Source of the DNA: Gemmatimonadales bacterium
Lineage (GTDB): Bacteria; Gemmatimonadota; Gemmatimonadetes; Gemmatimonadales; GWC2-71-9
Assembly (NCBI GenBank): GCA_045803245.1
Contig: JBJMPK010000228.1
Location: 1-60,237 of the forward strand
Length of the DNA stretch: 60,237 nt
Direction: 5' to 3'
Position numbers and translations under genes: made by a program. The notes under the pieces were generated by a model. It made no database searches. It saw only the letters and a program-made list of their open reading frames with translations, and had not been told where the DNA came from. This document shows, piece by piece, positions 4,537-56,642 of this stretch. Positions within the stretch are counted from its first letter, which is position 1, and the number at the start of each line of letters is the position of its first letter.

Positions 4537-6183
4537 TCAGGGCGACAAGGGAATGGGATCATCGGAAATCCCCTGCACCGGGTAATTCTCAAACGCCACC
4601 GTCGAGTACGCCTCGAAGAACCGCCGCACGTCGGGCAGGAACGATTCGTCGTAGCCCGGACAGAGACGCAGCCTCCGGCCGGTGGGCGCATGGCGCAGCT
4701 GGCCTTCCTCGACCACCAGCGTTCCGGCCTTGATGACATAGCGCGGCGTCGCGAACATGCCGGCGATGTCCGCATTCCTGCTGTACACGGTCACGTCCGC
4801 ATCGGCGCCCGGACCAAGATGTCCCTTTCGGGTGAGACCCAGCAGGCGGGCGGGCCCCGCACGAGTGATGATGGCGATCTCGTTCAAGGTGTATTCGCGA
4901 GCCAGGCCGTCAGCGAGGGCCGACCCGGCCAGAAGCTTGGGGTTGACCTGCTTCAACCTCTCTTCCCGCACGGTGCGATCCATGAGCAGCTGAATCAGGG
5001 CCGGATAGGCGAGAAAAGAGCCGCCGTTCGGATGGTCGGTCGAGAGTACCACGCGCCAGGGGTCAGCGCTGAGGAGAAACAGCTCCAGGCCGATAGCCCA
5101 TTGGAGAGCGGACACGGCGGCCTTGTCCTTATACACCAGCGGTACGATGCCGCAGCCGGTCTCCAGCTCTATATCGATGTTCACCCACCGGCGGCCGCTG
5201 CTCTTGTGGAGCAGGTACTCGACCGGCCCGTCGGCGGTGATGGTCATAGCCGGTCCGAACATCACCTGTCCGACATCCACGCTCAGTTCGGCATGCGCGT
5301 TGACATACTCGATCAGCGGTCTTGCCGCCGAGCTCCAGGGTGGCCCACCGTAGGAATGGAACTGAAGGTGAGTAAGGTGGGCCCGGCGGCCAGCCAGAGC
5401 CTCCATGGTAGCGCGCGTGACAGCCGCGTTCCCGGGCAGGCCCAAGTTGTTGCAATGGATGTGGACCGGATGCGGTAGCTCGAGAGCGTTGGCCGCATCC
5501 GAGAGCGTCTCGAGGATCGCTCGGGGCGTGACGCTCCTGCCCGCGAGAGGTTCGTCGATGCCATTCAGGTTTCGCTGTCCTGACTTCCAGGCTTCGATTC
5601 CGCCGGGATTGACGATCTTGATGGCATACCCGCCGGTCGACCCGAGCAGCCAGGCGGCGTAATCCCGGGCCCGGTCCCGTTCCCCGGCGGCGATCTGGCG
5701 GAGCAGGTATTCGTCGTTGCCCATCAGGACAAAAAACCCACCATCCACGCAAGGGGTATCGTCCAGCTCGCTGTGACTATGCCGGGCCATCAGGGGGGCG
5801 ACAGCGGCGTCGAAGACCGTGGTGTAACCCAGGCCTGCGTAGCGGTATCCGGTGGTGAAGGTCGTGGGTACGGATCCTCCGCTCCCCGATCGTGGGACGG
5901 TCTCGGTGTTCTCCAGGCGGGGTGCCGGCGTGGGATCGGCTGCGCGCTCCTCCGGCACCAGGCGCCGGGCATGGTTGCAGCTGGAGCTGGCCAGGTGCGA
6001 ATGGATATCCACGCCACCGGGCATCACCACCATGCCCTTTGCGTCGATCGACGGCGCGCCTTCGGGCAGGGTCGCCACAATACGCCCGTCCTCGATACAA
6101 ATGTCCCGGATCTCGCCATCGATCCCGTTAGCCGGATCGTGAACGGCGCCACCCGCAATGCGGAGGCGGGCCTTGTCGCTCAT
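4537..6183 (-). CDS. fhcA: Formyltransferase/hydrolase complex subunit A (FwdA-like amidohydrolase)
   Basis: 548 aa. Amidohydrolase metal motif GGVDIHSH near the N-terminus and length typical of FwdA/FhcA. ATGA overlap with the fhcB stop. Confidence 0.9.
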   Translation of the reverse strand: MSDKARLRIAGGAVHDPANGIDGEIRDICIEDGRIVATLPEGAPSIDAKGMVVMPGGVDIHSHLASSSCNHARRLVPEERAADPTPAPRLENTETVPRSGSGGSVPTTFTTGYRYAGLGYTTVFDAAVAPLMARHSHSELDDTPCVDGGFFVLMGNDEYLLRQIAAGERDRARDYAAWLLGSTGGYAIKIVNPGGIEAWKSGQRNLNGIDEPLAGRSVTPRAILETLSDAANALELPHPVHIHCNNLGLPGNAAVTRATMEALAGRRAHLTHLQFHSYGGPPWSSAARPLIEYVNAHAELSVDVGQVMFGPAMTITADGPVEYLLHKSSGRRWVNIDIELETGCGIVPLVYKDKAAVSALQWAIGLELFLLSADPWRVVLSTDHPNGGSFLAYPALIQLLMDRTVREERLKQVNPKLLAGSALADGLAREYTLNEIAIITRAGPARLLGLTRKGHLGPGADADVTVYSRNADIAGMFATPRYVIKAGTLVVEEGQLRHAPTGRRLRLCPGYDESFLPDVRRFFEAYSTVAFENYPVQGISDDPIPLSP

Positions 6184-24532: not shown

Positions 24533-25018
24533 ATGATAGCTAGCCCTTGGATCCGGACCGTGGCGCTGATACCTCTGCTCGGCTGCACCCCACTGGGATT
24601 CTGGGTGTATGGCGACCCGGTGGTGAGCGTTTCCCGGGTTACGCTACGACTCGAGCGCCTGAGATACCGGGGGGAATCGCCTGTCGTGGTGGCCCTCGCG
24701 GTGGAGAATCCCAACGATTACGCGCTATCCAGCGAGCGAGTCGAGCTTTCCCTCCGGCTCGACGGCGTGCCCATCGGGAAACTCAGGCGGGACAGTACGG
24801 TGCCGGTCGAGATGGCAGCGGTCTCAACCCTGGCGTTGGCCGTGCCGTTGGAGAAGCAGGCCACTCCCGAGCATCTGGCGGCGCTGGGCTCGGGCACCCA
24901 CAGCTTCGCGGTGCGGGGACGCGCTACCTTCCGGACTCCATTTGGGATGCGAAAGGTGCGTTTTGAACAAGAAGGCGCGATGAAATTCGGCGGGCGAATC
25001 ACCGATTCAGTGCCGTAG
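24533..25018 (+). CDS. LEA type-2 (NDR1/HIN1-like) domain lipoprotein
   Basis: Signal and lipobox ALIPLLGC. Beta-sandwich LEA_2-like pattern (VALAVENPNDYALSSERVELSLRLDGVPIG). 12-nt convergent overlap with the dnaE2 3' end. Confidence 0.55.
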   Translation: MIASPWIRTVALIPLLGCTPLGFWVYGDPVVSVSRVTLRLERLRYRGESPVVVALAVENPNDYALSSERVELSLRLDGVPIGKLRRDSTVPVEMAAVSTLALAVPLEKQATPEHLAALGSGTHSFAVRGRATFRTPFGMRKVRFEQEGAMKFGGRITDSVP

Positions 25019-28000
25019 TCTGGCCTGGACTCGTTCCAGGCGATCCAGCCGGGTAATAGTAAGGGTCACCACTCCAAACTCCTGCTCCACCTTTCCTCGA
25101 AAGATGAACGGTCCCTGGTCGAACAAGACGTGGCCGCGTTCCCGATAGATCCGGGGGAAGAGTACCGCCTCGATCAGTCCGTGACCATCATCGAAGGTGG
25201 CAAACTCCATCGGCTCCTCGTTCTGCGTGTGTACCGGCTTGGCGGTCGTGAGCATGCCGGCCGCCAGGATATGCCGGCCCACGTGACGGTGCAGATCGGT
25301 GCTTCGGCACAGACGAAGCCGCCGGATATGATCGGCGTGGAGCTGCATCGGATGCGCATCGGTCATGAACCCCAGCGCTTGGTACTCTTCCCTGCGGCGG
25401 CGCTCGGGGGAGTACTCCTTGAGAGTTGGAACCGCAGCAGGTAGTTGACTGAACCAATCGTCCAATGGAGCTTCGGCCCCTTCGCTGCACTCAGGGTGAC
25501 AATCAACAGACTCGTCTCTAAACCGCCCCGCCGCCCCGCCGCCCCGCTGCCCCGCTGAATCCACCATCCACAGCATCATCGGCCGGGTCCACCCCTGCGC
25601 GATCGAATCGAGGGCGCCGACCTTGATCAGAAGACGCAGATCTGATGGAGCGATGCCGGTGCGCGCCCGGAAGTCGAAGATGCTTTGGTACGGATGCGAA
25701 GGTGCACGGTCGGTCCAGCCGTCCGCCCGTCCGCCCGTCCGCCCGTCCACCCGCGCAGCGAACACCCGCTCCACCGCGTCCGCCGACAGCCCCTTCACGA
25801 ACTGCAATCCAATCCGGATCTCTTTCCCCTGACCGGTGCAACGGAACTCACTGGCGTTGACATCAGGCGGGAGGATGGTGAGGCCCATCCGCATGGCTTC
25901 CGCTATATACGCGAACGGCTGATAAAACCCACCACCGTTCGACAGCACCGCCGCCATGAACTCCGCCGGATGATTGGCCCGGAGAGCGCAGGCATGCTGC
26001 GCGATCTGGATATAGGAGCACGAGTGTCCTTTGCAGAAGCTGTACCCCGCAAACGACATGATCATCTCCCAGACCTGCTTGGCCGCATCCGGAGCGCGGC
26101 CCAGACGCGCTGCCCCGGCGAAGAATTCCTCCGCATACGCGGCGAGGTGCTTAGTCGGGCGCTTCTTGGAAAGCGCCTTGCGGAGCCCATCGCCTGTGGC
26201 AGGCGACATTCCGGCAAACGTGGCACAGACGTTCACCACGTCCTCCTGGTACACCATGATCCCGAACGATTCGAGGAGGGTGTCCCGCAGCGATGGATCG
26301 AGCGGCTGGTACGGCTGTTTGTTGCGCAGTCGCTCGAGGTAGATGTGTATGTACTTGTTCGACGCCGGACGGATCATGCTGGTATTGAGGACCAGCAGCT
26401 CGAAGGTATCCGCCTGGCTTCTGGCGCAGAGGAGGCGGGAGGCCGGAGATTCGGTGTAAAAAACCCCCATGGTTTGGCCGGTGCGGAACAGAGCCTTGGC
26501 TCCCTCGTCCTCGCCCGCCTCCGCTGAGGTGTAGTCAATGCGATGACTTGTGTTCCCATGCACCGCCGCGATGGCGTCGCGAATCACTGCCAGCGACCGA
26601 TTTCCCAGGAGATCGATCTTCACCAGCCCGGCATCCTCGGTGCCGTCTTTCTCGAACTGAATGACCGGCACCTGGAGATCGGGATCGTCGCTCAGCTGCT
26701 TGGCCGCGGGCTCCACCGGTACGTAATCGGTGAGCGGCGTCGGCGTGATCACCACCCCCCCGGCATGGACCGACAAGTGACGCGGGATGCCAACCAGACT
26801 CTCGGCAGACCGGGCATACTCCTGCCAGGCGGCCGGCAGGCTGAGTCCCCGAAAGTTGGGATGACTCGCCACTAAATCCGGTAGCCGCGCGCCGGTCTCA
26901 TAGAAAAAGGGGATACGCCGCGTCACCTCCCGAATCTCGCCGGCCGGGCGGCCATGCACCTTGGCCACCTCCCGGAGAGCTCCGCGGGGCTGAAAGGTGT
27001 TGTGGTTGGCCACCATGGCAGCATGCAACCGGGGATACCGGCGAAACACGTACGCCAGCACCTTATCCCGCTCGTCCCAGGGAAAATCCAGATCGATATC
27101 GGGCGGGTCACGCCGCTCGAGATTGAGAAAACGCTCGAAGACGAGCTTGGATCCGATCGGGTCCACGTGCGTGATGCCGAGACAGTAGCTTACGACCGAA
27201 TTGGCGACCGAGCCTCGCCCGCAGTGAGTGGGGCCGTTCCGGACAATGTCACGAACCACCAGGAAGTAGTCGGCAAAACCCTTCTGAGCGATGACCCCGA
27301 GCTCCAGGTCGAGCCGCTGCTGCAGCTCCCGGGTGATGACGGGATAGCGCCATCGAGCGCCATCGAGGGTCAAGCCGCGGAGCTGATCGAAGGCACCCGC
27401 GGTGTCGGCCATACGAGGCGGCACGATACGGTTTCCGACCGGAATCTGATAGCGGCATCGCTCCGCGATCTGGGCCGCGGCGAGAATGGCCTCGGGACAA
27501 TCGGGGAAGTGGCGCGCCAGGTCGGGGGTGGAGCAGAGCCAGGCACCGGTGGGCCAGACTGCTTCGGACGGTAGCGCCGATAGCGTGGTGTTCAACGCAA
27601 TGGCGCGAAGCAGGCGGTGTCGGCTCCACTGCTCCGCCTGCGCCGCCACGACGCCGTTGGTGGCGACAACCGGCAGCCGGAGCCGGCGTGCCGCGGCGAG
27701 CACCGCGTGTCGCTCGCGTCCGGGCCGGAGCTCCGCGTAGAGATTCTCCGGGCCACTCAGGCGGAGAACCTGCTCCAGGAAACCCGGGTTGCGCGAGAGA
27801 AGGATGAGGCCATCGCGGTCGTGCGCGAGGAGGGAGGGCAGGCGGACGGGCGTCCGCCAGTGAATTGCGGTGATCGCTCGACACAAGGCCGCCCACCCGC
27901 ATTCATTGGACGCTAATGCCACCACTTCCTGGTCATCTACGACGAGATGGGCCCCCAGTATGGGCCGTACACCAACAGCGGCACAGGCGCGCTGAAACTC

Positions 28001-28138
28001 CACCGCGCCATAGACGCCGTTGGTGTCGGTGCAGGCGAGGGCAGGGAACCCCTGGCTGGCCGCTGCCTCAGCCAGAGCCTCGGGACTCGAGACGCCGATG
28101 CCGAAGGAGAAGTGGGAGTGGACGTGAAGGTGGATCAT
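25007..28138 (-). CDS. dnaE2: Error-prone DNA polymerase III alpha homologue (DnaE2/ImuC)
   Basis: PHP-domain start MIHLHVHSHFSF (Met11 of the track ORF). Pol III alpha core (GRGSVANSVVSYCLGIT, DIDLDF). About 1040 aa, no tau/beta-binding C-terminal extension, OB-fold C-terminus. Confidence 0.85.
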   Translation of the reverse strand: MIHLHVHSHFSFGIGVSSPEALAEAAASQGFPALACTDTNGVYGAVEFQRACAAVGVRPILGAHLVVDDQEVVALASNECGWAALCRAITAIHWRTPVRLPSLLAHDRDGLILLSRNPGFLEQVLRLSGPENLYAELRPGRERHAVLAAARRLRLPVVATNGVVAAQAEQWSRHRLLRAIALNTTLSALPSEAVWPTGAWLCSTPDLARHFPDCPEAILAAAQIAERCRYQIPVGNRIVPPRMADTAGAFDQLRGLTLDGARWRYPVITRELQQRLDLELGVIAQKGFADYFLVVRDIVRNGPTHCGRGSVANSVVSYCLGITHVDPIGSKLVFERFLNLERRDPPDIDLDFPWDERDKVLAYVFRRYPRLHAAMVANHNTFQPRGALREVAKVHGRPAGEIREVTRRIPFFYETGARLPDLVASHPNFRGLSLPAAWQEYARSAESLVGIPRHLSVHAGGVVITPTPLTDYVPVEPAAKQLSDDPDLQVPVIQFEKDGTEDAGLVKIDLLGNRSLAVIRDAIAAVHGNTSHRIDYTSAEAGEDEGAKALFRTGQTMGVFYTESPASRLLCARSQADTFELLVLNTSMIRPASNKYIHIYLERLRNKQPYQPLDPSLRDTLLESFGIMVYQEDVVNVCATFAGMSPATGDGLRKALSKKRPTKHLAAYAEEFFAGAARLGRAPDAAKQVWEMIMSFAGYSFCKGHSCSYIQIAQHACALRANHPAEFMAAVLSNGGGFYQPFAYIAEAMRMGLTILPPDVNASEFRCTGQGKEIRIGLQFVKGLSADAVERVFAARVDGRTGGRADGWTDRAPSHPYQSIFDFRARTGIAPSDLRLLIKVGALDSIAQGWTRPMMLWMVDSAGQRGGGAAGRFRDESVDCHPECSEGAEAPLDDWFSQLPAAVPTLKEYSPERRRREEYQALGFMTDAHPMQLHADHIRRLRLCRSTDLHRHVGRHILAAGMLTTAKPVHTQNEEPMEFATFDDGHGLIEAVLFPRIYRERGHVLFDQGPFIFRGKVEQEFGVVTLTITRLDRLERVQARLRH
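25523..25554. repeat. Octamer array ccgccccg x3 + ctgccccg inside dnaE2
   Basis: Four 8-nt units read directly. They encode SAGQRGGGAAGRF in the dnaE2 frame. Confidence 0.9.
25719..25750. repeat. Octamer array ccgtccgc x3 + ccgtccac inside dnaE2
   Basis: Four 8-nt units read directly. They encode DGRTGGRADGWTDR in the dnaE2 frame. Confidence 0.9.
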
Positions 28139-28148
28139 ACCCAACAGC

Positions 28149-28193
28149 GTGAGCGGGAAAAGACACAACGTGAGCGGTGAGCGGCCCGCTCAC
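28149..28193. repeat. Composite GTGAGCG element with terminal hairpin
   Basis: gtgagcg (28149-55), 14-nt spacer, gtgagcg gtgagcg (28170-83), gcc, cgctcac (28187-93). The last two units form a 7-bp hairpin. Lies between the hydrolase stop and the dnaE2 start. Confidence 0.85.
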
Positions 28194-28199
28194 GCTGTG

Positions 28200-28997
28200 T
28201 CACTTCCCGCTCAGGCTGTCCAGAAACTCATCGAGTATTCGGTTGAATTCATCCGGCTTGTCCAGCTGGATCCAGTGGCCCGTTCCGGCCACCACGCGGT
28301 GGGGGAATCCGTTTCCCAGACGATGGAGGCTGAACGCCTGATCGTTATATGGTGTGACCACCGATAGCTTGGGCCCTTGGTACCGGGCCAGCGAGGAATC
28401 GGGGTCGAACTGCATCACACTCCGGAGGACCGGCAGAACTGTTTCCCGGGGGGTGGCCCGGAGATCTGCGAGGAGCCGGCTTCGGACCGTGCTGTCGGGT
28501 CCGGCTATTTCAGTCCAATACTTCTGGCTCCCGCGGTCGTAGTCCAACTCGAACCCTTCCAGAAACGACTGGATATCGGACGGGGGAATCGCCTTGCTGT
28601 CTCCAATGGGATCCACCAGCAGAAGCCCAGCCACACGGCCCGGATGGTTGCCGGCATACACCAGCGCGGCGCCCCCACCCATACTGTGGCCTACCAGGAC
28701 GAACTGCTGAAGGCCGAGAGAGTTGGCCACCGCGCTGACATCACTGGCCATGGCATCGATTGAATAGTCTCCGTTTCTGGCCGGCTCAGACCGGCCGTGT
28801 CCCCGGAAATCGAAGGCGATGGCGCGGCGCTGTGGCCGCAAGCGCTCCAGCTGCGCCTTCCACTGCCTTGTGTTGCCCGCCACAGAATGCACCAACACGA
28901 CCGGCAAATCTCCCCCTAGCTCGGCAGGGGGACCGCCGTCGTCGACGACCAGGGTTCCTGCCGGACCTACGACCCGAATACCCCGCTCACCGCTCAC
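28200..28997 (-). CDS. Alpha/beta-fold hydrolase
   Basis: 265 aa. HSVAGN oxyanion region, nucleophile elbow GHSMGG, C-terminal His context GTGHW. The proposed GTG start lies within a repeat unit. Confidence 0.8.
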   Translation of the reverse strand: MSGERGIRVVGPAGTLVVDDGGPPAELGGDLPVVLVHSVAGNTRQWKAQLERLRPQRRAIAFDFRGHGRSEPARNGDYSIDAMASDVSAVANSLGLQQFVLVGHSMGGGAALVYAGNHPGRVAGLLLVDPIGDSKAIPPSDIQSFLEGFELDYDRGSQKYWTEIAGPDSTVRSRLLADLRATPRETVLPVLRSVMQFDPDSSLARYQGPKLSVVTPYNDQAFSLHRLGNGFPHRVVAGTGHWIQLDKPDEFNRILDEFLDSLSGK

Positions 28998-29555: not shown

Positions 29556-29658
29556 TATTGGCTATTCGCTAAGGGCTGTTGGCAAAGCTATATGTAGCAG
29601 ATATCTCATTGTTCGCGCTGTAGCCAATAGCCAATAGCCAATAGCCAATAGCCAACAT
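29556..29658. repeat. Inverted pair of heptamer arrays (TATTGGC-like x4) ... (CCAATAG x4 + ccaacat)
   Basis: Left arm 29556-29583: tattggc tattcgc taagggc tgttggc. Right arm 29624-29658: four perfect ccaatag units running into the qor ATG (29657). Fills the divergent tag/qor intergenic region. Confidence 0.9.
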
Positions 29659-30634
29659 GCGTGCTGTGATCTACGAGGGAGCAGGAGGCCCCGAAGTCAT
29701 CACCATCGGCGAAGTGCCCAAGCCCGAAGTGGGCAAGGAGCACATCAGGGTAAAGGTTCACGCCGCGGGATTGAACCGGGCCGACTTGATTCAGCGGCGG
29801 GGCCACTACGCGGCGCCGCACGGCTGGCCGGCGAACATCCCGGGCCTCGAATACGCCGGCGAAGTCGAAGCGGTCCGTCCCGGCGTGACTCGCTGGAAGG
29901 TGGGCGACCGGGTGATGGGACTCGTTGGCGGAGGTGCCCAGGCGGAATTTGTCGTCGTGCACCAGGATGAGGTGTTTCCCATTCCGGCGGGATTGACGTA
30001 TCAGGAAGCTGCGGCGATTCCCGAGGCATTTCTCACTGCCTATGATGCCCTGGTAACTCGGGGCCGGCTCCAGTCGGGTGAGCGAGTGGTGATCCACGCC
30101 GCCGGAAGCGGGGTGGGGACCGCCGCCTCGCAGGTGGCCAAGCAGCTCGGCGCCACGGTGCTCGGAACATCCCGCAGCGGCGACAAGCTGGCCCGGGCTC
30201 TGGTCTATGGCCTCGACGTCGGGATCGACGTTAGCCGGACGCCTTTTCGCGACGCAGTCGGCGAGCCCGTCGATGTGATTCTCGACGTACTCGGCGGACC
30301 CGCCTTTGCCGACAACCTGGCGGTGCTCGCGCAGCGGGGGCGGCTGGTCCTGCTGGGTTTCCTGGCCGGCAGCCGGACCGAAGCTGACCTGGGACCGCTT
30401 CTCGGGAAGAGACTCGAGGTCATCGGCACCGTCATGAGGACTCGTGGTCATGAGGAACGAGTTGCACTGGTCCGCGAGTTCAGTCAGCGAATGCTGCCGC
30501 TGTTCGAGCCCCGCGAGGGAGGGGCAACTCTCCGTCCAGTCCTGGAGCGAAGCTATCCGATGACTCAACTGGCGGAGGCGCATCGGGTTCTCGAGGATAA
30601 CGCCAGCTTCGGAAAGATCGTCGTCGTCTGGTGA
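29657..30634 (+). CDS. qor: NAD(P)H:quinone oxidoreductase (zeta-crystallin/MDR family)
   Basis: 325 aa. MDR pattern: N-terminal GroES-like part, Rossmann motif VVIHAAGSGVGTAA, C-terminal FGKIVV. Confidence 0.8.
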   Translation: MRAVIYEGAGGPEVITIGEVPKPEVGKEHIRVKVHAAGLNRADLIQRRGHYAAPHGWPANIPGLEYAGEVEAVRPGVTRWKVGDRVMGLVGGGAQAEFVVVHQDEVFPIPAGLTYQEAAAIPEAFLTAYDALVTRGRLQSGERVVIHAAGSGVGTAASQVAKQLGATVLGTSRSGDKLARALVYGLDVGIDVSRTPFRDAVGEPVDVILDVLGGPAFADNLAVLAQRGRLVLLGFLAGSRTEADLGPLLGKRLEVIGTVMRTRGHEERVALVREFSQRMLPLFEPREGGATLRPVLERSYPMTQLAEAHRVLEDNASFGKIVVVW

Positions 30635-31911
30635 GGGGGGAGCGGTGAGCGGTGAGCGGTGAGCGGGCCACCCCGCAGCGCTCCAGCGCCGTATCGATCA
30701 CGAATACGGTCGAGGGCGTGCTGAAGGGCGGACGGTCGGACGGTCGGACGGTCGGAGGAGGTCACGGCAAGGTCTCCCATTGCCTGTCCGCCGGTACGCC
30801 CGTCCGTCCGTCCGCCCCACAGCTCCAGCTGCGTCTCCCCTTCCATCAGTCGGTCCAATGTGAGCGACACCGACCGGACCGCCAGGCGCTTGGTATTGGC
30901 GAGCGCAAAAGCACGTCGCGCGGCGTCCCATAGCTCGGTATCCAGCACCGCGGCATTGAGCGGCAGGGCTCGAGCTGTGGCGGTATAGTCGGCATACGTC
31001 GCCTCCAGCCGGAGCTGTCCCGCGACCAGGCCACGCGCACGCACCCGACGTCCGAGACGCTCGCTCAGGGCACGAAGTAGCGGATGCAGGATGCCGAGGT
31101 CGTTGGTGTCGGTAGCCAGAGTGTGGACCACATAAAATTCCCTCTGGCGCTCGGGTGGCAGCACTGGCCGCGGGTCGATGCCCCGGGCCCGGGCCCGAAG
31201 TATCCGGCCACTGCGGCCGAAGACAGCACATAACGCGTCTTCGTGAATGGCGGCGATTTCTCCGATGAGATCGAGCTGATAATCCTCCAGTCTCTCGCGC
31301 ATGCGTGGATCCAGCTCCGGGAGCACCTCGATTGGATGAGGAGCCAGAAAGCTCCGTTCGTTGCCGAGGGGGACGCACAGTAATTCGGAACCGGCTTGCC
31401 CCCACCCGCTACGCGGGTACCCGGCCCGTCCGACTATCCACCGGTCTGCCCGAATCGCCGCCTGACTCACAAGCTTGTTGGCCGCGACCCCAACCGACAG
31501 AGGCAACCCCAGCCGCTCGCTTGCCTCCCGCCGGATCCGTGCGGCGACGTCTTCGGGAGGACCGAAGAGGCGGCCGGTTCCGGTGAGGTCGAGGAAAGCG
31601 TGACCGTAGCCCCGCGGCTCGATGGCCGGCGCGTAAGCCCGTAAGATCTCGTGCAGCGCACGAGAAGCCCGAGCATAGAGCCTTGGGTTGGGTGGCAGGA
31701 CAATGAGATCGGGACAGAGCCGCTGGGCCTTGCGGACGGCCATTCCCCGCTGGAGGCCGGCCGATCGCGCCTCTGCCGAGAGCGCGAGGATCGTGGCGCG
31801 ATCGGCGCCCGGCGGTGCCACAGCCAGAGGACGCGTTCTCAGCTCGGGCGCGACCATGCCTTCCAGGGTGGTGCAGAAGGCGGGAGGGTCCACGAAGAGA
31901 ACGGAGCGCAT
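30565..31911 (-). CDS. imuB: ImuB: Y-family polymerase homologue lacking catalytic carboxylates
   Basis: DinB-like fold (RPLAV, LCPDL, LPLSVGVAANKLVSQAA). The catalytic sites are replaced: VDMD becomes VDPP and SLDEAYLD becomes GYGHAFLD. The 3' end is uncertain; the last ~35 codons read through a repeat array and antisense qor. Confidence 0.75.
   Translation of the reverse strand: MRSVLFVDPPAFCTTLEGMVAPELRTRPLAVAPPGADRATILALSAEARSAGLQRGMAVRKAQRLCPDLIVLPPNPRLYARASRALHEILRAYAPAIEPRGYGHAFLDLTGTGRLFGPPEDVAARIRREASERLGLPLSVGVAANKLVSQAAIRADRWIVGRAGYPRSGWGQAGSELLCVPLGNERSFLAPHPIEVLPELDPRMRERLEDYQLDLIGEIAAIHEDALCAVFGRSGRILRARARGIDPRPVLPPERQREFYVVHTLATDTNDLGILHPLLRALSERLGRRVRARGLVAGQLRLEATYADYTATARALPLNAAVLDTELWDAARRAFALANTKRLAVRSVSLTLDRLMEGETQLELWGGRTDGRTGGQAMGDLAVTSSDRPTVRPSALQHALDRIRDRYGAGALRGGPLTAHRSPLPPHQTTTIFPKLALSSRTRCASAS
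30631..30665. repeat. Heptamer array gtgaggg gggagcg gtgagcg x3
   Basis: The qor stop TGA (30632-34) lies in the first unit. The opposite strand is stop-free and is read through by the imuB ORF. Confidence 0.9.
30731..30815. repeat. Inverted pair of octamer arrays (gacggtcg x3) ... (ctgtccgc cggtacgc ccgtccgt ccgtccgc) inside imuB
   Basis: Left arm 30731-30754, right arm 30784-30815. Translated in the imuB frame as GGRTDGRTGGQAMGDLAVTSSDRPTVRPS. Confidence 0.9.
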
Positions 31912-31926
31912 GAGATACCAAAAAAC

Positions 31927-32015
31927 GTGAACAGTAAACGGTGAACGGTGAACAGGATTGATGTCAGGGATTTTCGTGGAATCCCCCTGTTAACTGTTCA
32001 CCGTTCACGGTTCAC
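31927..32015. repeat. 89-bp imperfect palindrome of GTGAACR heptamers with inner hairpin
   Basis: Left arm 31927-31954: gtgaaca gtaaacg gtgaacg gtgaaca. Right arm 31988-32015: tgttaac tgttcac cgttcac ggttcac. Inner stem GGGATT (31967-72) / AATCCC (31980-85). Lies between the VOC stop and the imuB start. Confidence 0.9.
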
Positions 32016-32349
32016 TCTTATCTGACCACACGGCCAGCTCGTTGCCGCTAGGATCGGTAAAGTGGAACCGCCGGCCACCGGGAAAGCTGAAGATGGGCTT
32101 TACAATGGTGCCCCCGGCCTGGCTGACCTGTTGCTCCATGGCCTCGAGATCAGCCGCATAGATGATCACCAGCGGGCCGCCGGGTCGAACCTTTTCTTGC
32201 GTCTGGAAGCCGCCGCTCAGCCGGCCATCGGCGAAGCTGGCATAGTCGGGCCCGTAGTCCTCGAAGGTCCAGCCGAATGCGCTGCCGTAAAACTGCTTTG
32301 CCTCCGGCACGTTCTGGACGGAAAACTCGATGTAATCGATGCGGTTCAT
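32005..32349 (-). CDS. VOC/glyoxalase-bleomycin-resistance family protein
   Basis: 114 aa. IDYIEF.V.N...A..FY..AFGW.F and FHF.DPSGNELAVW are typical of the single-domain VOC fold. 4-nt overlap with the radical SAM gene. Confidence 0.75.
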   Translation of the reverse strand: MNRIDYIEFSVQNVPEAKQFYGSAFGWTFEDYGPDYASFADGRLSGGFQTQEKVRPGGPLVIIYAADLEAMEQQVSQAGGTIVKPIFSFPGGRRFHFTDPSGNELAVWSDKSEP

Positions 32350-33734
32350 AACAGTATTGCCTGCTCGTTTGCGGGGTCAGGACTGGGGTTGGACTGCGCG
32401 GCAGCTTCCATCCGCCGCCGGCGTCTATAATTCGCTTCATCGCCCCCAAAGCCAAATGCGGTTCGCAGGGCGTTGAGCCGGCGAGTAAGGGCCTCCTGAT
32501 AATCCTGACTGGCCAAATCACTTCGGGCGTAATGTCGCCGATACCGCTCGGCCAATTGTGGAAACTCTTTCTCGAGGACGGGAAGAAAGCGATGTCGCGC
32601 CGCGGGACCGAGCCGGAGCGCCGACCCGATGACATAGCGTGCACCCGCCTCCTTCGCCGCCTCGATCAGCCGGGCTAATCCAGCCCAGTCATCGGTGATC
32701 CCGGGAAGGATCGGGGCTACTATGAGCCCCGCATGGACGCCCCCTTCAATGAGCCGTCGCAGCGCCCGCAGCCTAGCCGACGGCACGGGGGATCGGAGCT
32801 CCAGCCGGCGGGCGAGCCCCGGATCGGCCGTGGCGAGCGAAATGTTCACACTCATTTCGTTCCGTTCCGAAATCCCCCGTAGGAGATCCAGATCTCGGGT
32901 GACGAGGGGAGACTTGGTGATAATCTCGATCGATAGTCCGTGATAGGAACGCAAGACCTCGAGAATTCGACGGGTGAGCTGGAACTTCCGCTCCGCCGGC
33001 TGATAGGGATCGGTGGCGGTGCCGATGACCAATGAGTGACCGGCTACCCGCGCAGGATTGAGCGTGCGCGCAAGCACCTCGGCGACCCCCGATTTGACCA
33101 GGATCTCCTTTTCGAAGGCCTCCCAAGGCGGCAGGCGGCCGACCGACTGTCCGCCCGTCCGCCTGCCCGCCCGCTCCATCACCCACCGATGCGTGTCCCG
33201 GGCGTAACAGTAGGTGCAGCCGAACTCACAGCCGACATACGGGTTGATCGACCAGAAACCCATGCCGGTAGAAGCCGGCGTGTTGAGGACGGAGCGCACC
33301 GGCAACCCGATGAAGCTGGTGCCTCGGGAACGTTGGTCCAGAACCGGCAGCGGGGCAGCGGGGCTGCGGGGTAGTATCAGCGTTTCTGGGAAGAGATCGG
33401 CCGGTAGGTCGATTTGCTTCCCTGCTGCCCCGCTGTCCCGCTGCCCCGCTTTCACCCGCACAGCCCCCACCCACACTGAGTGCAGCTGATACATCCCGAA
33501 GAGCGGACGAGCAGGCCTGCGCATTCGGGACATTTGCCCAGTGGCTTGGTAGCGTTGCTGCCCTGCAAGGTCGGCTGGGTGGGAAGTGGAGTGGGGTAGG
33601 TCTGATATGGCGACACGGGAGTCCCCCGATCTTCTTCGGTCTTTATTCGGTACGCTATCCGAATATAGGCCGAAGCTCAGGGGGACGTCAAGATGCCCAA
33701 ATAGAGGATGGGCCTTCCAGGCCATTGACCCCAC
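32346..33734 (-). CDS. Radical SAM protein, SplB-like (COG1533, 'DNA repair photolyase' type); start uncertain
   Basis: SINPYVGCEFGCTYCYAR carries the CxxxCxxC radical SAM cluster motif in the context typical of this family. The N-terminal ~100 codons of the track ORF may not be translated. Confidence 0.75.
   Translation of the reverse strand: MGSMAWKAHPLFGHLDVPLSFGLYSDSVPNKDRRRSGDSRVAISDLPHSTSHPADLAGQQRYQATGQMSRMRRPARPLFGMYQLHSVWVGAVRVKAGQRDSGAAGKQIDLPADLFPETLILPRSPAAPLPVLDQRSRGTSFIGLPVRSVLNTPASTGMGFWSINPYVGCEFGCTYCYARDTHRWVMERAGRRTGGQSVGRLPPWEAFEKEILVKSGVAEVLARTLNPARVAGHSLVIGTATDPYQPAERKFQLTRRILEVLRSYHGLSIEIITKSPLVTRDLDLLRGISERNEMSVNISLATADPGLARRLELRSPVPSARLRALRRLIEGGVHAGLIVAPILPGITDDWAGLARLIEAAKEAGARYVIGSALRLGPAARHRFLPVLEKEFPQLAERYRRHYARSDLASQDYQEALTRRLNALRTAFGFGGDEANYRRRRRMEAAAQSNPSPDPANEQAILL
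33147..33170. repeat. Octamer array ctgtccgc ccgtccgc ctgcccgc inside the radical SAM gene
   Basis: Read directly. Encodes AGRRTGGQSVGR, located just after the CxxxCxxC motif. Confidence 0.85.
33417..33456. repeat. Octamer array cttccctg ctgccccg ctgtcccg ctgccccg ctttcacc
   Basis: Read directly. Lies in the 5' region of the radical SAM ORF (KAGQRDSGAAGKQ). Confidence 0.85.
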
Positions 33735-44897: not shown

Positions 44898-45599
44898 CTA
44901 GGGGTGGGGCGAGAGTCGCTGAGCCGCGAGCTCTTGGGGTCTCGCGCGCCGGTCGGCCCATCCGGCCAGCACCGCCAGCACCAGGATCAATAGAATATCG
45001 CTCGCGGCCACAACCGTCATGCTGGGTGGCAACGGACCATAGGTGGCGGCGAAGTAGGTGCCGAGCAGCACCAGCACCACCACGGCGAGTCGTGCGATGC
45101 GAACCGGGTGGCGGTGCGACTTCAGCGTTGTGTACAGCGCCAGCCCGATGCCGAATACTAAAAGCTCGGCGACCACCGTTGCCGTGGGGTTGTTCCACAG
45201 CCCGAGCCCGATTTTGGGTGAGTCGTTGCCCAGGATCGGCAGGTCACGGACATGAACCAGTACGTCGAGCGGGTAGTGTGAGAACACTGCCACCGCCACG
45301 ATGGCGGAAGCCTGCCAGTGCCGAGTCGTGTCCCGCGTGGGCCAGGAGTAGTAGGCCGCCGCGGCTACGACGCTCCACGCGAACACGCCGATCAGACTAT
45401 GGGAGATGGGATAGTCGATGAACTCGAATGGTGTGACCGCTGTGGCGCCCGGAACGATCCTCGCGTGCTCCCACCCGAGCAGCACAAAAATTCCCCACAA
45501 CAGATCGGCCAGCTGAGCCGCAACGAACAGGGTACCGAGCGACAGCTTAGGCTCGGCGCGCTTCAAGGCGAAGGCAATACCGTAGTGGCCTAGGAACAT
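44898..45599 (-). CDS. Integral membrane protein, possibly YdjM/DUF457-like metal-dependent hydrolase
   Basis: 233 aa, about 7 hydrophobic segments, conserved His residues (MFLGHYG, PISHSL, FSHYPLD). The family assignment is tentative. Confidence 0.5.
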   Translation of the reverse strand: MFLGHYGIAFALKRAEPKLSLGTLFVAAQLADLLWGIFVLLGWEHARIVPGATAVTPFEFIDYPISHSLIGVFAWSVVAAAAYYSWPTRDTTRHWQASAIVAVAVFSHYPLDVLVHVRDLPILGNDSPKIGLGLWNNPTATVVAELLVFGIGLALYTTLKSHRHPVRIARLAVVVLVLLGTYFAATYGPLPPSMTVVAASDILLILVLAVLAGWADRRARPQELAAQRLSPHP

Positions 45600-45603
45600 G
45601 GCA

Positions 45604-45643
45604 GGGAAGCGGGGAAGCGGGGAAGCGGGGAAGCGGGAAGTAG
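45604..45643. repeat. Octamer array gggaagcg x4 + ggaagtag
   Basis: Four perfect 8-nt units immediately upstream of the start codon at 45599 (minus-strand gene). Confidence 0.95.
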
Positions 45644-45748
45644 ACGATCGGCCCTCTTCACGAGACCTCCATTCGGCTGTTGGACTCCAGCAACTCGGGG
45701 GAGAACATACGCCAATGTGCGGCCTGCGCCAATGAACGTCGCTGCTCT

Positions 45749-46594
45749 CTACTTCCCCGCCTCCCCGCTTCCCCGCTTACCCACTACCCCGCCTCCCAGC
45801 CAGGCCCCGCCATCCACCACCATGATCGCACCGGTAATCCACTCTCCGGCTGGGCTGGCCAGGTAAGTCACCATCTGGCCGATGTCCTCGGGCCGTCCCC
45901 AGCGGCCCAGCGGGATCGAGTCGGCGGCGTACCTCTCCATTCCGAACAGATCCGGCCCCGCGCTGCCGGAAGGGGTAAAGGCTTTCTTCACACCCTCGGT
46001 GGGGATCGGACCGGGCGCCACGGCGTTGACTGTGATGCGATCTGGAGCCCACTCGAGCGCCAGGGTTCGCGTGAGCGCATCCACGCCGGCCTTGGCAGCA
46101 GTGGCGTGCGCCATCAGCGGCCAGCCGCGGTAGTGCAGCGTCATCGAGATCGAGACGATGCGGCCGGCGCCTTGCGCCTTCATGACGGGATAGACCGCCT
46201 GGCTGCAATAAAAGGTGCCGTATAGGTCGGTTTCGATTACCGCTTTCCATCCGTTGGAAGAGAGCGTGGCAGTGGGTGCATAGAAGTTTCCGGCGGCGTT
46301 GTTGACCAGGATGTCCAGCCGGCCGTGCTCTTGTGCCACCCGGTCCACCATGCGTGACACCGATTCCGGCTCTCGTACGTTGACTTCAATGGCGCTCACC
46401 TTGGCTCCGCTCGCGCGCAGCTGCTCCGCCGCCGGGGCGAGATGCTCCGGCTTGCGGCTTGCGATGGCCACCGACGCTCCCGCCCGCGCCAGTGACGACG
46501 CGATGCCCAGGCCTATGCCAGTCCCCCCACCCGTGATCAGGGCTACCTGGCCCGCCAGCACATCCGGCCGGAAGACGCTGGCCGGTTGGCTCAC
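45749..46594 (-). CDS. Short-chain dehydrogenase/reductase (2,4-dienoyl-CoA/enoyl-CoA reductase-like)
   Basis: ITGGGTGIG cofactor motif and an SDR core. 4-nt overlap with the upstream crotonase gene. Confidence 0.8.
   Translation of the reverse strand: MSQPASVFRPDVLAGQVALITGGGTGIGLGIASSLARAGASVAIASRKPEHLAPAAEQLRASGAKVSAIEVNVREPESVSRMVDRVAQEHGRLDILVNNAAGNFYAPTATLSSNGWKAVIETDLYGTFYCSQAVYPVMKAQGAGRIVSISMTLHYRGWPLMAHATAAKAGVDALTRTLALEWAPDRITVNAVAPGPIPTEGVKKAFTPSGSAGPDLFGMERYAADSIPLGRWGRPEDIGQMVTYLASPAGEWITGAIMVVDGGAWLGGGVVGKRGSGEAGK
45752..45797. repeat. Octamer array cttccccg cctccccg cttccccg cttaccca ctaccccg (reverse complement of the 45604 array)
   Basis: Read directly. Overlaps the last 15 codons of the SDR gene (GGVVGKRGSGEAGK*). 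Confidence 0.9.
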
Positions 46595-56092: not shown

Positions 56093-56581
56093 TCAGACGC
56101 TCCGAGCGGCGACCGGTACCGGGACCTGATTCAGGCCCAGCCAGTACCTACCAATAGCCTGTATGGCTGCCCGGAACTCCTCGTGTCGGACTGGTTTCTG
56201 AACGCAGCTATTGGCGCCGAGCTGGTAGCATTGAGCCAGCTCGCGGGGATCGTTGGATGAGGTAAGGACAACGACTGGCGCCATGCTGGTGCGGGCGTTG
56301 GCCCGCAGGGCACCGAGAACCTCTAAGCCGTCCACCTTGGGGAGCTTGAGGTTCAACAGCACCAGCCGGGGCACCGGCGCCCCGGAACGATGTCGAAAGG
56401 CGCCCCGGCCAAGAAGAAAGTCCAGCGCCTCCTCACCATCACGAACCACTTCTATCCGGCCGTCGGGATACAGCTCATGAAGCGGCTTGACTGTGAGCTC
56501 TACATCCAGCGCACTATCCTCGACCAGGAGGATGTCGGTAGGCAGCGCGACAGCGGGTAAGCGGGTAAGTTCGGCGCTCAC
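56093..56581 (-). CDS. Stand-alone CheY-like response regulator
   Basis: ILLVEDS, LVLLNLKLPKVDG and VQKP are receiver hallmarks. GTG start in a GTGA overlap with the kinase stop. Confidence 0.8.
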   Translation of the reverse strand: MSAELTRLPAVALPTDILLVEDSALDVELTVKPLHELYPDGRIEVVRDGEEALDFLLGRGAFRHRSGAPVPRLVLLNLKLPKVDGLEVLGALRANARTSMAPVVVLTSSNDPRELAQCYQLGANSCVQKPVRHEEFRAAIQAIGRYWLGLNQVPVPVAARSV

Positions 56582-56642
56582 GACGATGATGCGCCGTTAC
56601 TACCCACCTGCTTCCCCGCTTCCCCGCCGACCCGCTTACCTG
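56553..56642. repeat. Inverted octamer arrays (gcgggtaa x2) ... (cttccccg x2, ccgacccg, cttacctg) spanning the kinase/regulator junction
   Basis: Left arm 56553-56568, within the regulator 5' codons. Right arm 56611-56642, within the kinase 3' codons (AAAGKRVGGEAGKQVG). Confidence 0.85.

Follow-up and report, generated by a model that had tools for sequence, protein, structure and literature searches.

Octamer arrays in a dnaE2-like gene of Gemmatimonadales as probable relic arms of in-frame, tandem-repeat-armed palindromes

Why would a gene for a putative error-prone polymerase carry two short arrays of octamers, in which the gain or loss of a single unit shifts the reading frame? The question is raised by the 60,237-nt contig JBJMPK010000228.1 of a Gemmatimonadales bacterium (GenBank assembly GCA_045803245.1; this whole stretch is called the window), in which a dnaE2-like gene on the minus strand holds both arrays in frame. 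A sequence-only reading of this DNA had taken them for candidate slipped-strand (contingency) switches. Our analysis favors, at slightly better than even probability, another origin: the arrays would be relic arms of in-frame palindromes with arms made of tandem repeats, tolerated as loops of the polymerase, shaped by slippage, correction and deletion, and selected for reading frame. As such, they would be frameshift-prone weak points and need not be evolved switches.

Both arrays were found exactly as the sequence-only reading gave them, in coordinates, units, in-frame location, and translation. The array that we call site 1 lies at 25719-25750 as (CCGTCCGC)3-CCGTCCAC and encodes ...ARVDGRTGGRADGWTDRAPS... 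(codons 807-817), and site 2 lies at 25523-25554 as (CCGCCCCG)3-CTGCCCCG and encodes ...DSAGQRGGGAAGRFRDES... (codons 872-882). Tandem Repeats Finder reports a period of 8 for the arrays starting at 25523 and 25719, with 4.1 and 4.4 copies, 96% matches, and scores of 59 and 63, respectively; each contains only three perfect units and one variant unit. They fall in the last quarter of dnaE2, inside a minus-strand open reading frame (ORF; 25007-28168) that runs unbroken through both. When unit changes were simulated, a shift of +/-8 or +/-16 nt at either array gave products of 841-937 amino acids in place of 1053, and a shift of +/-24 nt kept the frame. Therefore, the frameshift arithmetic of the sequence-only reading is right: a change of one or two units at either array would truncate the polymerase before its OB fold.

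Arrays of this kind might be dismissed as chance low-complexity sequence in a GC-rich gene or as a sequencing or assembly artefact of this contig, since the G+C content of the genome is 61-68%, a range in which short G/C-rich repeats are commoner. This explanation is refuted, and we give it practically no weight. The window contains seven period-8 and four period-7 arrays of at least three copies, and five mononucleotide shuffles of the window, used as the chance control, yielded no period-8 array and one of period 7. Moreover, the ORF is intact across both arrays, and dozens of independent assemblies have similar arrays at these two sites.

The probable origin of the arrays becomes apparent from orthologues, for which we built alignments on 48, then 81, and then 161 dnaE2 sequences. 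The closest relatives of the window's protein are proteins of Gemmatimonadales metagenome-assembled genomes (MAGs), 1009-1108 amino acids long and 76-84% identical. At both sites, the orthologues' inserts are near-perfect DNA hairpins of ~100 nt with folding energies of -30 to -60 kcal/mol. A full hairpin consists of four or five G-rich octamers, which in the intact form are of the GGGGNNGC or GGACGGGC types, a loop of 30-60 nt, and then complementary C-rich octamers. The unit differs by genome (GGGGAAGC, GGGTAAGC, GGGGCGGC/GGGGCAGC, or GGACGGGC), and more distant relatives have other units, heptamers included.

Read in the sense direction, the site-2 array of the window is GCGGGGCA + (GCGGGGCG)x3, a G-rich arm alone, without loop and C-rich arm. 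It matches, base for base, the left arm of complete hairpins in loci L020, L009, L014, and L084. In place of the loop and the right arm, it is followed by half of an element of a different repeat family (DCHPECSEGAEAPLD), as also seen in L013 and L016. The site-1 array, (GGACGGGC)x4 in the sense direction, matches the left arm of a complete hairpin with the same unit in L161 and is followed by GACCGACCG, to which the C-rich right arm has been reduced. Given this homology to the left arms of full hairpins in orthologues, both window arrays are, as judged from sequence comparison, orphan G-rich arms of decayed palindromes, and we call them relics because both elements have lost the C-rich arm. 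What had looked like free-standing microsatellites would thus be the surviving arms of palindromic elements that recur throughout the gene cluster around dnaE2.

Such elements are translated in frame as palindromes of ~100-150 bp in the orthologues and in two further hairpins of the window (E3 and E5, described below), and the two window arrays are single arms. The start of the loop, AACAGCACACC, is read as NSTP at site 1 and as QEHT at site 2; since the same loop-start DNA is read in different frames, the element is an entity of the DNA level. A family consensus with a conserved peptide did not emerge, as units and loops vary and so does the frame in which the motif is read.

The host gene (25007-28168, minus strand) is an ORF of 1053 codons, from which a product of 1043 amino acids (P0001) is called with its start about 10 codons in. 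Pfam recognizes PHP, DNA_pol3_alpha, finger, and HHH_6 domains. Both relevant NCBIfam models remain below their cut-offs, the error-prone model NF004225 with 551 bits (cut-off 939) and the DnaE1 equivalog NF004226 with 597 bits (cut-off 1002). When the protein is aligned to Escherichia coli Pol III alpha (5fku), the match spans residues 6-1054 of 1160, and the catalytic motifs PDIDLDF and KIDLLG are kept; the tau-binding C-terminal domain is absent from the product, the alignment ending at about residue 1054 of E. coli alpha. The architecture (PHP, Pol3 core, fingers, HhH, and OB, no tau-binding domain, about 1000-1100 amino acids) is that of DnaE2. Because the tau-binding domain is missing, an ImuB pattern lies nearby, and Gemmatimonadetes are listed with both DnaE1 and DnaE2 (PMC3919608), we accept the label DnaE2-like for what is a divergent lineage, an assignment made on context with the NCBIfam cut-off not reached. 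To this extent, the earlier identification of the gene as dnaE2 stands: it encodes a DnaE-type polymerase, one of the DnaE2 kind, and an ImuB-like gene lies close to it.

Within this protein, sites 1 and 2 are indel hot spots between nearly invariant flanks and carry from 0 to about 70 extra residues in all three orthologue alignments. Site 1 lies between ...AVERVxAAR and ...SIFDFR, inside the HHH_6 match, which extends over 96 residues for 84 profile positions, and, when compared with E. coli alpha, is seen to be inserted between the two HhH motifs. Ten distant DnaE2 representatives (35-47% identity) have little or no insertion here ('AR..GGPF.S..DF'), two of them with a few extra residues. 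Site 2 lies between RPMMLWxVDSAG and DWFxxLP...EYSPERRR; in the alignment to E. coli alpha, this position is just before the internal clamp-binding motif, to which DWF is probably equivalent, and ahead of the OB fold. The placement proposed from the sequence alone, in variable linkers after an HhH-like segment and before the OB fold, was therefore right, and the orthologue alignment by which it was to be checked puts both arrays in hypervariable, lineage-specific insertion sites.

To what extent are such repeats a property of the clade? The census comprised 80 genome loci and the window (1.42 Mb), with each genome represented by pieces of 7-23 kb and arrays of at least three copies counted; 81 metagenome loci served as a second, independent set, so that array densities are available for 161 loci besides the window. 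The census set contains 251 period-8 and 180 period-7 arrays, where about none are expected, and 26 and 5 arrays of periods 9 and 10, respectively. Its 99 two-armed hairpins have a modal arm of four units, and in 88 of them the G-rich arm stands 5' of the C-rich arm, a strand-symmetric property that is independent of the direction of the gene or of replication. Octamer hairpins lie inside long open frames in 81% of cases, versus 24% for heptamer hairpins.

The arrays are concentrated in three DNA-damage genes. In the genome set, the number per kb is highest for the Rv2578c-type radical SAM gene (1.03), followed by the ImuB-like gene (0.83) and dnaE2 (0.55), compared with 0-0.04 in the tag, hydrolase, and glyoxalase genes. 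The three conserved genes further downstream have none, whereas uncovered DNA of the cluster span reaches 0.79 per kb, mostly heptamers, and DNA elsewhere 0.11. The independent metagenome loci give 0.68, 0.96, and 0.70 per kb for radical SAM, ImuB-like, and dnaE2 genes, with 0 in five of the six poor genes and 0.19 in tag, so that four poor genes are at zero in both sets. Within these genes, the arrays gather at a few hot spots: nt 300-450, 600-750, and 2400-2850 of dnaE2; two positions of imuB, one following the AIKAG loop and one immediately following QLELWG; and the N-terminal part of the radical SAM protein. The few intragenic hairpins outside the cluster lie in unrelated proteins, and a link of all hairpins to SOS genes was rejected, since those between genes lie next to LytB, cyclase, Cpn10, OsmC, and helicase genes. 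We found no account of these repeats in Gemmatimonadota, or of repeat-laden ImuB or DnaE2 genes, in the searchable literature; this class of array and its concentration in error-prone repair genes appear to be undescribed.

The two arms of a hairpin do not change independently. We illustrate this with twenty non-identical site-2 hairpins, whose 33-bp stem was compared with controls in which the 3' partners were shuffled (500 times) or the register was slid. Pairing extends over 81.6% of cells, compared with 67.9 +/- 1.2 after shuffling, and double-sided changes number 96, compared with 50.8. The covariation score is 0.343 against 0.155, a value reached in none of the 500 shuffles, and the slid-register controls give 0.04-0.14. 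Among the stem mismatches, no wobble signature of a sense RNA was seen (38 G.T versus 59 A.C); since G.T mismatches are not commoner than A.C mismatches, the stem bears no signature of selection on the sense RNA. We read the complementarity of the arms as DNA-level maintenance or replacement of whole elements, and note that it is compatible with function too.

Such function would be realized if the DNA or RNA structures themselves were selected, that is, if the hairpins, or G-quadruplexes formed by orphan arms, held down or gated the expression of a dangerous error-prone module in cis through transcription, mRNA stability, or translation. This would account for complementarity that is kept through compensatory changes, and it is in line with the concentration in three DNA-damage genes and with the G-arm-first order of 88 of the 99 hairpins, in which the C-rich arm would pair once transcribed, in either direction. 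In addition, both window arrays match the quadruplex motif G3+N1-7 x4 on the sense strand, a sequence motif that only predicts folding. Nevertheless, we regard selected structures as rather unlikely, given that G.U-compatible mismatches on the sense strand show no excess, that occupancy of the sites is patchy, with many orthologues lacking a hairpin, and that the window's dnaE2 is intact though both of its hairpins are lost. Many units, such as the heptamers and GGACGGTC, are incapable of forming a quadruplex, sister elements often have no G runs, and Rfam at its gathering thresholds gave no match in the window.

Another explanation starts from the recurrence of the elements, which might be mobile and non-autonomous, similar to miniature inverted-repeat transposable elements or REPINs, and be transposed by an enzyme with a preference for G-rich targets in these genes. 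Indeed, one sub-family with the shared loop start GC-AACAGCACACC occurs, in different genomes, at dnaE2 sites 1 and 2, in imuB after QLELWG, and in the radical SAM gene; one hairpin is present in one and absent from the other of two strains 98.7% identical, and related hairpins lie in intergenic DNA elsewhere in the window. We consider mobility improbable all the same. Units and loops are heterogeneous, and the candidate for a universal core motif, GCACAC at the start of the loop, was rejected, as only 11 of 52 hairpins share the motif. Furthermore, six of the genome loci shown have a 153-nt segment in common at site 2 and differ in their units, which looks like evolution in place. Neither a target-site duplication nor a transposase was seen, in data that were not systematically searched for either, and no duplication was noticed at site 2.

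There is also a second palindromic family (GTCACCCTGAGCGAAGCGAAGGG... in DNA), which is found in frame and between genes and encodes the peptides CHPERSEG, LRSAQGD, PRFARDD, and ILSEAKDL. In the window, half of such an element, the DCHPECSEGAEAPLD segment (25460-25504, minus strand; CHPERSEG ... LRSAQGD/PRFARDD), stands in place of the lost right arm of site 2. The family is found at site 1 in L024, L026, L042, L031, L012, and the proteins P0005 and P0038, at site 2 in L013, L016, and L156, and upstream of dnaE2 in L021, L057, L062, L016, and L023. We presume that its peptides resemble those of spurious ORFs in soil metagenomes. At site 1 of L064, about 18 tandem heptamers (GGGGAAC/GGAACGG; 4974-5111) are read in frame as (GERGTxN)x6; no longer array was seen, and a partner arm for it is not obvious.

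Turnover of the repeats can be followed between close relatives. The nearest relative of the window organism has a protein identity of at most about 84-88%, which confines the strain-level comparison to sister species. In 24 near-identical locus pairs of the clade, every indel of at least 5 nt that we located falls in an array or hairpin. L003 and L084 (98.7% identical) differ by what appears, from a break in the alignment blocks and from the site-2 peptides, to be approximately the whole site-2 hairpin. Several array changes keep the frame, among them a 21-nt difference in imuB between L095 and L096. L043 and L113 are set apart by a 22-nt heptamer block upstream of dnaE2. Two differences are exact unit steps that break the frame. 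Over 3.96 kb, L120 and L082 share 99.4% identity, and the sole indel is the loss by L120 of two CCCCGCTT units (-16 nt) from the right arm of its site-1 hairpin in dnaE2, which leads to a stop about 45 codons later; L081 and L082 are intact. Similarly, L065, 99.2% identical to L092, is missing one GGGAGGCC unit (-8 nt) in imuB, and the gene is split. Both alleles are deletions in short-read assemblies, in which a repeat may have collapsed, given how assemblers treat repeats. When the out-of-frame junction peptide of L120 served as a query for the same allele elsewhere, no scored match was returned and the in-frame relatives were missed too, so that this search is uninformative.

Across the clade, a single frame is kept in 158 of the 161 dnaE2 copies, and two of the three broken copies are in error-prone assemblies. 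The frameshifts of L020 and L029 were considered as off alleles and rejected: they are 1-nt indels in G/C runs, and we treat them as sequencing errors because the same MAGs are also broken in array-free genes (PQQ dehydrogenase, orf351). More generally, 1-nt breaks occur in many genes, array-free ones included, of the 'MFD' MAGs L020, L029, L072, L066, L052, L016, L026, and L060, which we take to be long-read assemblies and which are unsuited as evidence of pseudogenes or phase variation. The short-read contigs L048, L057, L062, and L065 end at dnaE2 site 1 or 2 or no more than a few tens of codons away; the repeats may break assemblies.

These data bear on the proposal that prompted the analysis, in which non-triplet arrays are maintained in the mutasome genes as contingency (phase-variation) switches, so that slippage reversibly toggles error-prone synthesis. 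Units of 7 or 8 nt mean that a single-unit change always shifts the frame, two independent data sets show such arrays to be enriched at least 10-fold in the three DNA-damage genes, and two natural exact-unit frameshift alleles exist among siblings at least 99% identical (L120 versus L081/L082 and L065 versus L092). The comparison of copy number between strains yielded unit-step variants of the predicted kind, in sister species and not in strains of the same species, and the slippage part of the proposal has indirect support from frame-shifting changes of unit number in sister lineages (L120 in dnaE2, L065 in imuB). An adaptive switch is unproven, and we consider it unlikely. Arrays have about four units (3 perfect and 1 variant in the window) where long perfect tracts would be expected, the coupled complementary arm is superfluous for a switch, and 25 of 75 full-length dnaE2 genes are free of any array. 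Instead of common on and off states, one of 161 dnaE2 copies is off by a unit change; with three frames broken, two of them in error-prone assemblies, and arrays of only 3+1 units, the population mixture implied by contingency is not what is found. Moreover, both off alleles are short-read-assembly deletions in which collapse is possible, and the position of the arrays, in the final quarter of dnaE2, is not near the 5' end, with sister species and not the same species as the basis of comparison.

Classical contingency tracts, such as those of Haemophilus, Neisseria, and Campylobacter, are long, perfect, and usually 5'-proximal, lie in surface or restriction genes, and are frequently found on and off. 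The arrays described here resemble them in being non-triplet repeats within an ORF that undergo frame-shifting unit steps between close strains. They differ from such loci in having about four, often imperfect units and an inverted partner, in lying near the 3' end of dnaE2, and in being nearly always in frame.

For the relic-arm interpretation, we envisage the following course. An intact palindrome would be inserted in frame and read as a Gly/Arg/Ala/Lys-rich and then a Pro/Ser/Leu-rich peptide, with the frame set by the site. The polymerase would tolerate it in insertion-tolerant segments, namely, the inter-HhH loop and the linker that precedes the probable clamp-binding motif and the OB fold. 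Replication slippage would alter the number of units, intrastrand template switching or replacement would keep the arms complementary or restore them, and whole hairpins may be deleted between arms. Purifying selection on the reading frame would clear most out-of-frame products, the elements themselves being presumably neutral.

Several observations weigh against this interpretation. Tolerance and neutral turnover leave the concentration in three genes (0.55-1.03 versus 0-0.19 per kb) unexplained, as they do the G-arm-first polarity (88/99). Complementarity of the arms that persists at 75-84% protein identity could reflect selection on structure rather than mutational bias. Tolerance of the loops rests on alignments, because the AlphaFold2 model built from the 48-sequence alignment was unusable (mean predicted local distance difference test score, pLDDT, of 47; predicted template-modeling score, pTM, of 0.32). 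Finally, no transposase, target-site duplication, or master copy was identified, transposase and duplication having had no systematic search, and the loop motif is shared by 11/52 hairpins. Neither the relic-arm interpretation nor any of its rivals explains the at least 10-fold concentration in three genes or the G-first polarity. A further possibility, which we hold unlikely, is that the repair module of Gemmatimonadales (radical SAM, ImuB, DnaE2) was colonized by palindromes, or evolved them, as a selected feature. Through slippage of units and loss of hairpins, expression of the polymerase would then be heritably and reversibly variable, or it would be structure-gated; the control of mutation rate would thereby gain a layer of contingency or regulation, and the window arrays would represent one state.

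The surroundings of dnaE2 in the window are rich in related elements: nine repeat features fall in about 9 kb (sites 1 and 2, E2-E6, and the arrays at 30630 and 33139), compared with four in the other 51 kb. The ImuB-like gene (30565-31911, minus strand) lies 2.4 kb upstream of dnaE2 on the same strand, a synteny kept in most of the loci listed. Its product has Pfam IMS and IMS_C domains and scores below the cut-offs of the NCBIfam Pol IV models. Compared with DinB, the protein seems to lack the catalytic acidic residues ('FVDPPAF', 'GHAFLD'), and we take it to be an inactive Y-family homologue of the ImuB pattern; its QLELWG resembles the clamp-binding motif of mycobacterial ImuB. The site after QLELW is hypervariable in ImuB orthologues, and palindromes insert directly there in this clade. 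In the window, this position holds hairpin E3 (30720-30823), with GGACGGTC units, in frame, and 37-nt arms that are 81% complementary. The 3' end of the ORF has a heptamer array, (GGTGAGC)x5.3, at 30630-30666, and upstream of the gene lies the heptamer-armed hairpin E4, with GTGAACG units, at 31927-32015.

The radical SAM gene (32346-33734, minus strand) belongs to the Rv2578c/PA0069 family; it has a Pfam Radical_SAM match and falls below the NCBIfam rSAM_Rv2578c cut-off. It hosts the octamer-armed hairpin E5 (33346-33450; GGGGCAGC units), in frame at about codons 95-130, and a one-armed C-rich array at 33139-33174 ('RRTGGQSVGR'). ImuA or ImuA' was not recognized in the cluster with Pfam, NCBIfam, or the gene calls of L161. 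Between the DNA-damage genes lie tag, hydrolase, and glyoxalase genes and, on the opposite strand, a gene for a Zn-dependent alcohol dehydrogenase; because the latter runs opposite to dnaE2, the cluster is not one operon. Mirror ORFs of 325 amino acids occupy 29606-30583 (minus) and 29657-30634 (plus). A minus-strand ORF at 29606-30697 ('unk363') was considered as a gene of the cluster and rejected, as the L161 gene calls show the opposite-strand dehydrogenase here and arrays lie at the ORF ends.

A heptamer-armed hairpin with GTGAGCG units and 34-nt arms that are 88% complementary (28144-28219) lies downstream of the hydrolase gene and extends across the 5' end of the dnaE2 ORF. Hairpins of this form, (GTGARCG)n ... 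(CGYTCAC)n followed by a T-rich stretch, lie just before or across the start of dnaE2, and also 170 nt upstream of it, in the set of loci L001-L161. Nearly all of the 28 closest relatives listed have the hairpin at the dnaE2 start, where GTGAGCG, GTGAACG, and GTAAGCG units co-vary in both arms. It could be a terminator of the hydrolase gene, a structure of the 5' untranslated region, or an operator array; its GAAC/GTTC content recalls some LexA boxes. A further heptamer-armed hairpin, TTGGCTA/TAGCCAA x5, is intergenic (29556-29655).

Outside the cluster, the octamer-armed hairpin E1 (GGGGAAGC x4, with a 118-nt loop; 45599-45802) lies between an SDR gene and a YdjM-like match. It is the largest hairpin of the window and sits at the 5' end of an ORF whose YdjM match is below threshold (20.9 bits, cut-off 29); ydjM is LexA-regulated in E. 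coli. Hairpin E8, with GGGTAAGC units (56545-56651), lies at the 3' end of a PAS/GAF histidine-kinase gene.

Among known systems, the nearest in its working, without homology being claimed, is that of the Rickettsia palindromic elements (RPEs), which PMC10969869 describes as palindromes of ~100-150 bp, inserted in frame and translated. The summary given there reports that the insertions were predicted to be compatible with protein conformation and function (Ogata et al. 2000, 2002). As described there, RPEs form consensus families with conserved peptides and occur in many unrelated genes, whereas the elements studied here have variable arms of 7- or 8-nt units, a frame that varies by site, and three DNA-damage genes as their main hosts. 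Long inverted repeats in coding sequence with both arms translated are likewise described for Nematomorpha mitochondria in PMC6649704, which states that inverted repeats rarely overlap coding sequence; those palindromes belong to a eukaryotic organelle, and their arms are not short tandem repeats and have no link to DNA-damage genes.

REP and REPIN sequences (PMC3116915, PMC3733652) are alike in being short, GC-rich, dispersed palindromes, often intergenic, a description that the heptamer hairpins of the window fit. REPs are extragenic, share a family consensus that bears a tag, GTAG or CGTC, and are associated with RAYT transposases (PMC3116915, PMC3733652); in contrast, the elements studied here have tandem-repeat arms, many are intragenic and in frame, and GTAG is found at the loop side of a few only. 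As for the genes, the cluster resembles the ImuA'-ImuB-DnaE2 cassette (PMC3919608, PMC10421592) in its DnaE2-type polymerase and nearby inactive Y-family homologue, and differs from it in that no ImuA is recognized, the genes are interrupted, and a radical SAM gene is included.

The finding has a practical side, in that protein alignments of DnaE2 and ImuB are inflated and scrambled by these repeats and that apparent pseudogenes are possible in MAGs. Frameshift-prone repeats within genes usually mark contingency loci; in Gemmatimonadales, they are found order-wide and occupy fixed hot spots of three DNA-damage genes, including two that encode error-prone repair proteins. If they are a mutational footprint, they would point to an unusual local process of slippage and template switching. 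If they are selected, they would represent a heritable and possibly reversible control on mutagenesis, which would bear on the evolution of mutation rates.

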